From a virus (Duplodnaviria > Heunggongvirae > Uroviricota > Caudoviricetes), in the IMG/VR virus record IMGVR_UViG_2740892045_000001: a stretch of 5,999 nucleotides of DNA; one strand, written 5' to 3'. Both the position numbers and the translations under genes were made by a program. Shown here piece by piece: positions 1 to 185 of the stretch; within the stretch, counting starts at the first letter, position 1, and each line of letters begins with the position of its first letter. The notes below the pieces were generated by a model. The model was given only the letters and a program-made list of their open reading frames with translations. It was not told the DNA's origin and ran no database searches.

Positions 1-50
1 CAGATGGGCGTCTAAGTTACCAATTCTCGTCTGATGGCTACATACGGCGG

Positions 51-185
51 TCAGTTTACGCTTACGGAGATATTCACGCAGGGGAAATATCTTTCCCCCT
101 CCGGCGTTCTCACCACGAAGCCGCACGACTCCGCTGGCGCACATCGCCGGGCGTGCGCCAGAATCGCTGATTCTGTCTCTGTCAT
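51..185 (-). pseudogene. K: Tail assembly protein K-like (JAB/MPN-type N-terminus), apparently truncated or disrupted: 44 codons then in-frame TGA at 51..53
   Basis: ATG at 183..185 lies 5 nt after the L stop (mRNA CAG UAA AUCCC AUG). My own translation gives MTETESAILAHARRCAPAESCGFVVRTPEGERYFPCVNISVSVN*. Up to VNIS this closely matches the lambda gpK N-terminus as I remember it, including the conserved E-x-C-G glutamate of JAB/MPN proteins. The reading frame stops before any HxH metal-binding motif. A different minus-strand frame stays open to the window edge. Confidence 0.45.

Follow-up and report, generated by a model that had tools for sequence, protein, structure and literature searches.

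We analysed a window of 5,999 nucleotides, the whole stretch of DNA considered here, from the tailed-virus record IMGVR_UViG_2740892045_000001, and its minus strand carries a lambda-type tail module with the genes in the order V-G-T-H-M-L-K'. The module ends in a 5' fragment of K, the tail-tip assembly gene, and the last 65 nucleotides before the window edge belong to an insertion sequence. Coordinates of V to L follow the RefSeq annotation of a near-identical genome, that of Escherichia coli strain 1446; the K fragment was delimited by its open reading frame (ORF), its identity to intact K and Pfam, and the end of that ORF by the frame read from nucleotide 1 of the element. The terminal inverted repeat comes from an alignment of the left and right ends of the element, the duplication from a comparison with intact K, and the short inverted repeats from a repeat search on the uninterrupted target.

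5889..5185, minus strand: tail gene V
5170..4799, minus strand: tail gene G
4775..4497, minus strand: tail gene T
4450..1223, minus strand: tail gene H
1245..889, minus strand: tail gene M
889..191, minus strand: tail gene L
66..185, minus strand: 5' fragment of K, codons 1–40, with its ATG at 185..183
98..92 and 87..81, minus strand: inverted repeat GGGGAAA-N4-TTTCCCC in the K target
92..86 and 74..68, minus strand: inverted repeat AGATATT-N11-AATATCT in the K target, overlapping the duplicated 8 bp
66..73, minus strand: left copy of the 8-bp target-site duplication, ATATCTCC
51..65, minus strand: artefactual end of the ORF, codons 41–44 (VSVN, 65..54) and TGA (53..51)
1..65, minus strand: left end (first 65 nucleotides) of the 2,532-bp IS66-family element ISEc23, in the same orientation as K and running off the window at position 1
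42..65, minus strand: left terminal inverted repeat of the element, GTAAGCGTAAACTGACCGCCGTAT
Outside the window, L001 11868-11875, past the element: right copy of ATATCTCC

Two of the upstream genes carry features of their own: the tape-measure gene H is annotated with 3,228 nucleotides, or 1,075 codons, compared with 853 residues in lambda, and the major tail protein V (window 5185..5889) is annotated as an immunoglobulin-domain protein. Among the genes of the module, the matching RefSeq record marks only K as a pseudogene.

The minus-strand ORF at 185..51 encodes 44 amino acids, MTETESAILAHARRCAPAESCGFVVRTPEGERYFPCVNISVSVN, and ends with the TGA at 53..51. A first-pass annotation, made from the letters of the window, had read this ORF as starting like lambda gpK, and it does so at both levels: 38 of its first 40 residues are those of the lambda K N-terminus, as encoded by re-sequenced lambda genomes, and its nucleotides are 100% identical to nucleotides 1–120 of the intact 744-nt K of E. 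coli strain 4/0. A 400-nt query spanning this part of the window matched the intact L-K regions of many E. coli genomes with 100% identity over positions 400..65, showing that the resemblance to K is not due to chance. Against the Pfam Prok-JAB model, residues 3–39 of the 44-residue product score 23.7 bits (E=4.6e-5), just below the 25-bit cut-off because the product is a fragment. The glutamate of the E-x-C-G motif of JAB/MPN proteins is present, as had been noted, at E19; it is the only part of the JAMM motif that the window ORF keeps, the HxH...SxxD metal site and the NlpC/P60 domain both being absent.

With the same query, homology to intact K ends abruptly at window position 65, in agreement with the earlier view that the sequence past the break is not K-like. 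The break therefore lies at 66/65, directly after codon 40, and for this reason the VSVN and stop codon, correctly placed by the first-pass annotation before the HxH motif and the NlpC/P60 domain, come from the element's inverted repeat, in which the frame from nucleotide 1 gives VSVN and a stop. A second frame had been described as open to the window edge; it is open within the window, but closes just one codon outside it and does not represent a gene. On the plus strand, a 58-residue ORF at window 34..210 runs antisense to the junction of K and the element and to the L-K intergenic region; as it reaches across the point of insertion, an ancestral gene is excluded, and we treated it as spurious. 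A scan of the left junction for promoters and terminators found none.

Read as its reverse complement, the window agrees with E. coli strain 1446 (NZ_CP184058.1, L001 3402-9400) at 5,998 of 5,999 bases. The sole mismatch is at window position 5933, which is intergenic upstream of V; in the minus-strand reading it is C in the window and A in strain 1446, so that the window stems from a very close relative and not from this very record. RefSeq gives the gene order in this strain as L, a 120-nt K 5' pseudogene, IS66 tnpA, tnpB, an ISEc23-family transposase, a K 3' pseudogene, I, J and lom, with the K 3' pseudogene annotated as a C40 peptidase 'missing N-terminus' and a tail-fibre gene further on. 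The first-pass annotation had proposed reading on beyond position 1, and in strain 1446 this sequence is the insertion element, followed 2,532 bp on by K in its original frame and then by intact I and J. K thus occupies its expected place between L and I-J, as V-G-T-H-M-L-K' in the window and K''-I-J-lom beyond the element; L-K-I-J is unbroken in strain 4/0 (L002) and in lambda. The same prophage holds a second mobile element, with an IS200C-family transposase gene (L001 17364-17822) between lom and the side tail fibre gene. The window shows only 65 nucleotides of the element in K, and what lies beyond position 1 is inferred from genomes matching at 5,998 of 5,999 bases rather than from the window's own source.

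The insert is an IS66-family element, named ISEc23 by RefSeq; the name comes from the annotation 'IS66-like element ISEc23 family transposase'. Members of the IS66 family have 20–30-bp inverted repeats starting GTAAGCG, generate 8-bp direct repeats and encode TnpA, TnpB and a DDE transposase (PMC11946415, PMC12888890), and each of these features was found. In L001 the element measures 2,532 bp, runs from GTAAGCG to CGCTTAC and is flanked on each side by ATATCTCC. Its left repeat GTAAGCGTAAACTGACCGCCGTAT and its right end GTAAGCGTCAACGGAGCACCGTAT are imperfect 24-bp repeats that match at 20 of 24 positions, counted from the alignment. Another ISEc23 copy (L003) carries GCCTGTTC on either side of GTAAGCG...CGCTTAC, supporting a duplication of 8 bp and not of 9 bp, and 8-bp duplications are found at other copies as well.

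In L001, beyond the window edge, the element contains three ORFs: tnpA, with a helix-turn-helix, tnpB, and tnpC, which encodes the DDE transposase. Pfam finds HTH_Tnp_1, TnpB_IS66 and DDE_Tnp_IS66 in their products, together with zinc-finger, leucine-zipper and C-terminal domains. The proteins pass the curated cut-offs of all three NCBIfam models for IS66 TnpA, TnpB and transposase, with 83 bits for NF047595 (cut-off 74), 120.9 for NF033819 (cut-off 50) and 452 for NF033517 (cut-off 180). The start of tnpA is at nucleotide 86 of the element, 21 nt beyond the window edge and in a frame different from the one open at the edge. The element is multi-copy and mobile: among 5,426 complete E. coli genomes, 2,560 contain the sequence of window positions 1..66, at 7,270 places in total and on both chromosomes and plasmids, and copies lie in distinct flanks with duplications of their own.

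Deleting the element and one copy of ATATCTCC in silico yields a 744-nt K that is exactly the intact K of strain 4/0. This uninterrupted allele encodes 247 amino acids, with Prok-JAB at residues 4–98 (52.5 bits) and NLPC_P60 at 111–224 in Pfam, and its translation contains a complete JAMM motif, E19...H68-S-H70-x7-S78-x-x-D81, following the definition E-Xn-H-S/T-H-X7-S-X-X-D (PMC300881). It is identical to K of re-sequenced lambda at 236 of 247 positions.

The first-pass annotation had expected a full-length K of about 200 residues, whereas K of the present type has 247. Its figure is explained by the lambda reference record (NC_001416/J02459), in which K is annotated with 199 residues from Met49, its first 46 codons being out of frame. 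We compared this record (L006, NC_001416, 4634-5376) with two further lambda genomes (L018, PV340536, 835-1578, and L019, LC730321) and found that the reference is without one G at K nucleotide 135 (GGAGGC-TATTT), 15 nt downstream of the insertion point of the element; this single missing base is the cause of the 199-residue annotation. Besides the two reference accessions, only two records, which share their coordinates, show the missing-G state, four in all; one base more is present in independently sequenced lambda (PV340536, LC730321 with 48,503 bp, and KT232076) and, among others, in DE3, lambda imm21/imm434 and HK629/630. A direct check of PV340536 and LC730321 gave a 247-residue K with JAB and NlpC/P60 domains. 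The missing G is either a sequence error of 1982 or a mutation private to the sequenced stock, and it is a practical warning to those who use the 199-residue lambda K as a model of the family.

Three explanations of the truncated frame had been put forward: a frameshifted pseudogene, a deletion or recombination breakpoint, and the edge of an insertion. The junction, the duplication and the exact restoration of K fit the last and contradict the other two. A frameshift, or a single-base sequencing error after codon 40, would account for an ORF that ends early beside another frame open to the window edge; however, K homology stops at position 65 and resumes in no frame within the window, and the last 65 nucleotides match one end of a multi-copy IS66-family element at every base. 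A pseudogene would retain homology past its defect, in another frame or after the stop, and here the rest of the window is insertion sequence; the open frame closes one codon past the edge, and 2,532 bp further on K continues in the frame that it had before the break. No one-base correction restores K, contrary to what the first-pass annotation had allowed for, and we regard this explanation as vanishingly improbable. The suggestion that intact phages might naturally encode so short a K is equally unsupported, because 1,722 of the 1,760 phage records matching K cover at least 80% of its 247 residues.

Prophage decay is common in E. coli, and the break lies close to the end of the window, which would suit a deletion or recombination breakpoint in a prophage that no longer has the rest of K, I and J. 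Nothing is missing, however, in the genome that matches the window at all but one base, where the 3' part of K, I, J, lom and the tail-fibre gene are all present, and in-silico excision restores K exactly; the perfect 8-bp direct repeat flanking the element fits simple transposition rather than a deletion mediated by the insertion sequence, leaving a breakpoint highly improbable. A repeat-induced misjoin at a copy of the element merits consideration on account of its very high copy number (the 7,270 places above), as such repeats often break or misjoin short-read assemblies. Against such an artefact, the full 400-nt query is matched, with the same left junction, in six complete genomes, of which four belong to one lineage and were assembled separately (strains 1446, 1447, AZ 189 and AZ 190) and two belong to another lineage with a diverged K. 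In strain 1446, moreover, the 8-bp duplication is the same at the two junctions; a misjoin would not give rise to it, and we consider an artefact extremely improbable.

We are thus almost certain that the 2,532-bp IS66-family element ISEc23 inserted at codon 40/41 of K with duplication of the 8-bp ATATCTCC, leaving no full-length K and, by prediction, no completed tail tip. On this reading ISEc23 has transposed into a lambdoid prophage, and the K frame therefore passes from codon 40 into the terminal inverted repeat and ends after VSVN. E19 would be cut off from both the H68-x-H70...S78-x-x-D81 metal site and the NlpC/P60 domain, and an in-frame stop in the right end of the element would block fusion into the 3' part of K. 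Such a prophage, alone, would be expected to fail at tail-tip assembly unless K were supplied in trans or the element were lost. The event itself is a routine insertion that RefSeq already annotates in the matching genomes; the apparent anomaly is resolved in these terms, and it illustrates how a window edge can make the junction of an insertion sequence look like a puzzling truncation.

On this sequence evidence, the prophage is predicted to be unable to supply functional K by itself. As gpK is required for lambda tail assembly (PMC12617516), a failure of tail assembly would follow, and it is reasonable to expect that, with this prophage as the sole source, the module would lack a functional tail tip. 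The in-frame stop (L001 11858-11860) falls within the right end of the element and precludes a fusion protein into the 3' part of K; the first start codon past it is Met49, which would give a 199-residue product, and the ORF from Met49 keeps the HxH...SxxD site and the NlpC/P60 domain.

Tails might still be made if another lambdoid prophage provided K in trans, or if the product starting at Met49 were active enough, a combined prospect that we consider rather unlikely. In its favour, genomes have a median of 3 places with L-K-like sequence, a count that includes matches to the insertion sequence and is indicative only. There is a precedent in the lambdoid prophages of E. coli O157 Sakai, in which defects in morphogenesis genes, including a nu1 gene disrupted by ISEc8, are complemented by co-resident prophages (PMC2669165). 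Retention of the HxH...SxxD site and the NlpC/P60 domain would speak for activity of the Met49 product, but several observations point the other way. The N-terminal segment belongs to the JAB domain, and even in distant siphophages the alignment to K begins at residues 1–8. Across alleles, the first 120 nt of K show 12–15 nucleotide differences that lead to only 2 amino-acid changes. Lambda, whose annotated K starts at the same Met49 as the 3' product would here, was considered as a precedent for a functional K without its N-terminus and rejected; the argument from the 199-residue protein collapses with the 247 residues encoded by re-sequenced lambda genomes. The insertion probably makes this ST131-type prophage tail-defective by a single clean lesion, one that would be repaired by excision of the element.

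Of the 5,426 complete E. coli genomes, 24 carry ISEc23 or ISEc22 at this site in K, and both orientations occur; ISEc22, with 2,454 bp, is distinct from ISEc23 but belongs to the IS66 family as well. Junctions were checked, and the occupied sites are distributed as follows.

ISEc23, orientation as in the window, same nucleotide: 4 genomes, window lineage
ISEc23, orientation as in the window, same nucleotide: 2 genomes, REF2 and EC17, with a diverged K allele in a different tail module
ISEc23, opposite orientation, same nucleotide: 1 genome, 23CRST030
ISEc22, same orientation as K, same nucleotide: 4 genomes, GF8 group, duplication ATATATCC
ISEc22, opposite orientation, same nucleotide: 6 genomes, poultry and avian-pathogenic isolates (strain 64.1, APEC 102026 and others)
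ISEc22, opposite orientation, +4 nt: 7 genomes, 2015C-3163, RM13322, an O103:H2 strain and others, duplication CTCTGCAG, with K more diverged

Duplications at the shared nucleotide of K are the same or near-identical, the +4 nt insertions lie 4 bp downstream of it, and occupied loci include L004 5335, L005 5335, L007 4061, L008 4061 and L009 4065. Opposite orientations and different elements cannot derive from one spreading allele, so that at least four or five of the events are independent. The flanks of REF2 differ from those of the window lineage within 12–19 nt of both junctions, which argues for a further independent event. Spread of a single interrupted K allele by recombination was accordingly rejected for the opposite orientations and the two elements, and is unlikely for REF2 given its flank polymorphisms. 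Codon 40 of K is, in our assessment, probably a genuine and highly specific hotspot common to ISEc23 and ISEc22.

The K target region (68..98) is rich in short inverted repeats that lie just upstream of the insertion point or overlap it, a purely descriptive observation, and its single-strand DNA fold has a z of -3.16. We sampled ISEc23 targets from 5 loci obtained by a scan for the left inverted repeat, eight arbitrary E. coli sites and three picked for flank similarity, which gave 9 distinct ISEc23 sites with duplications. This small sample yielded no robust target consensus, as ungapped comparisons anchored on the insertion point did not significantly exceed the level of shuffles for most of the sites. 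A local AAAGATAT similarity in L015 and L016 was rejected as a consensus owing to bias, these matches having been pre-selected by BLAST extension into the flank.

A second chromosomal site used by both ISEc23 and ISEc22 was found in strain AVS0947 (L016 3030). It is located between a fragment of an EutP/PduV-family gene adjoining tmaR and a transposase remnant, and it shares AAAGATATTT with K at the same distance from the insertion point. A recurrent ISEc23 site near the end of CP4-44 has been noted in a preprint (10.1101/527788), and the site in strain AVS0947 appears to be this one.

If the hotspot is real, the ISEc23/ISEc22 branch of IS66 would recognise something specific in a stretch of about 40 bp of K that is rich in inverted repeats, and the K site would offer a ready means of examining how this poorly understood transposon family chooses its targets. 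Knock-out of tail assembly by insertion sequences would likewise be a recurrent route to the crippling of prophages in E. coli. We rate the hotspot and the lambda annotation issue as minor leads; the recurrent use of one place in K by both ISEc22 and ISEc23 gives a concrete, if modest, pointer to target selection in the IS66 family.

Compared with the IS66 family, the element resembles ISEc23 and its relatives ISEc22, ISEc8 and IS679 in its GTAAGCG ends, its 8-bp duplication and its tnpA/tnpB/tnpC content. The present copy is identical or near-identical to copies on E. coli chromosomes and plasmids, and nothing in the element itself sets it apart from the family. Repeated use of one K site by ISEc23 and ISEc22 was not found described in the literature searched, which contained no published description of K as a hotspot for IS66-family elements.

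The uninterrupted allele resembles lambda gpK in its JAMM motif, in its two domains, Prok-JAB and NLPC_P60, and in the gene order L-K-I-J (PMC1779556, PMC300881). For this 'TAPK' architecture Iyer et al. predicted a role in processing the ubiquitin-like tail assembly protein I (PMC1779556). Mass spectrometry of lambda virions did not detect gpK (PMC10721106). The gene in the window differs in being split, with codons 1–40 alone on the promoter-proximal side, giving the 44-residue product, and the 3' part on the promoter-distal side. The closest parallel is the ISEc8 insertion in nu1 of prophage Sp4 of O157 Sakai, where an IS66-family element likewise breaks a single virion-assembly gene in an otherwise complete lambdoid module, and the likely outcome in both cases would be a defective yet complementable prophage (PMC2669165). 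In the present case the broken gene is K, and the site of insertion is recurrent across lineages.
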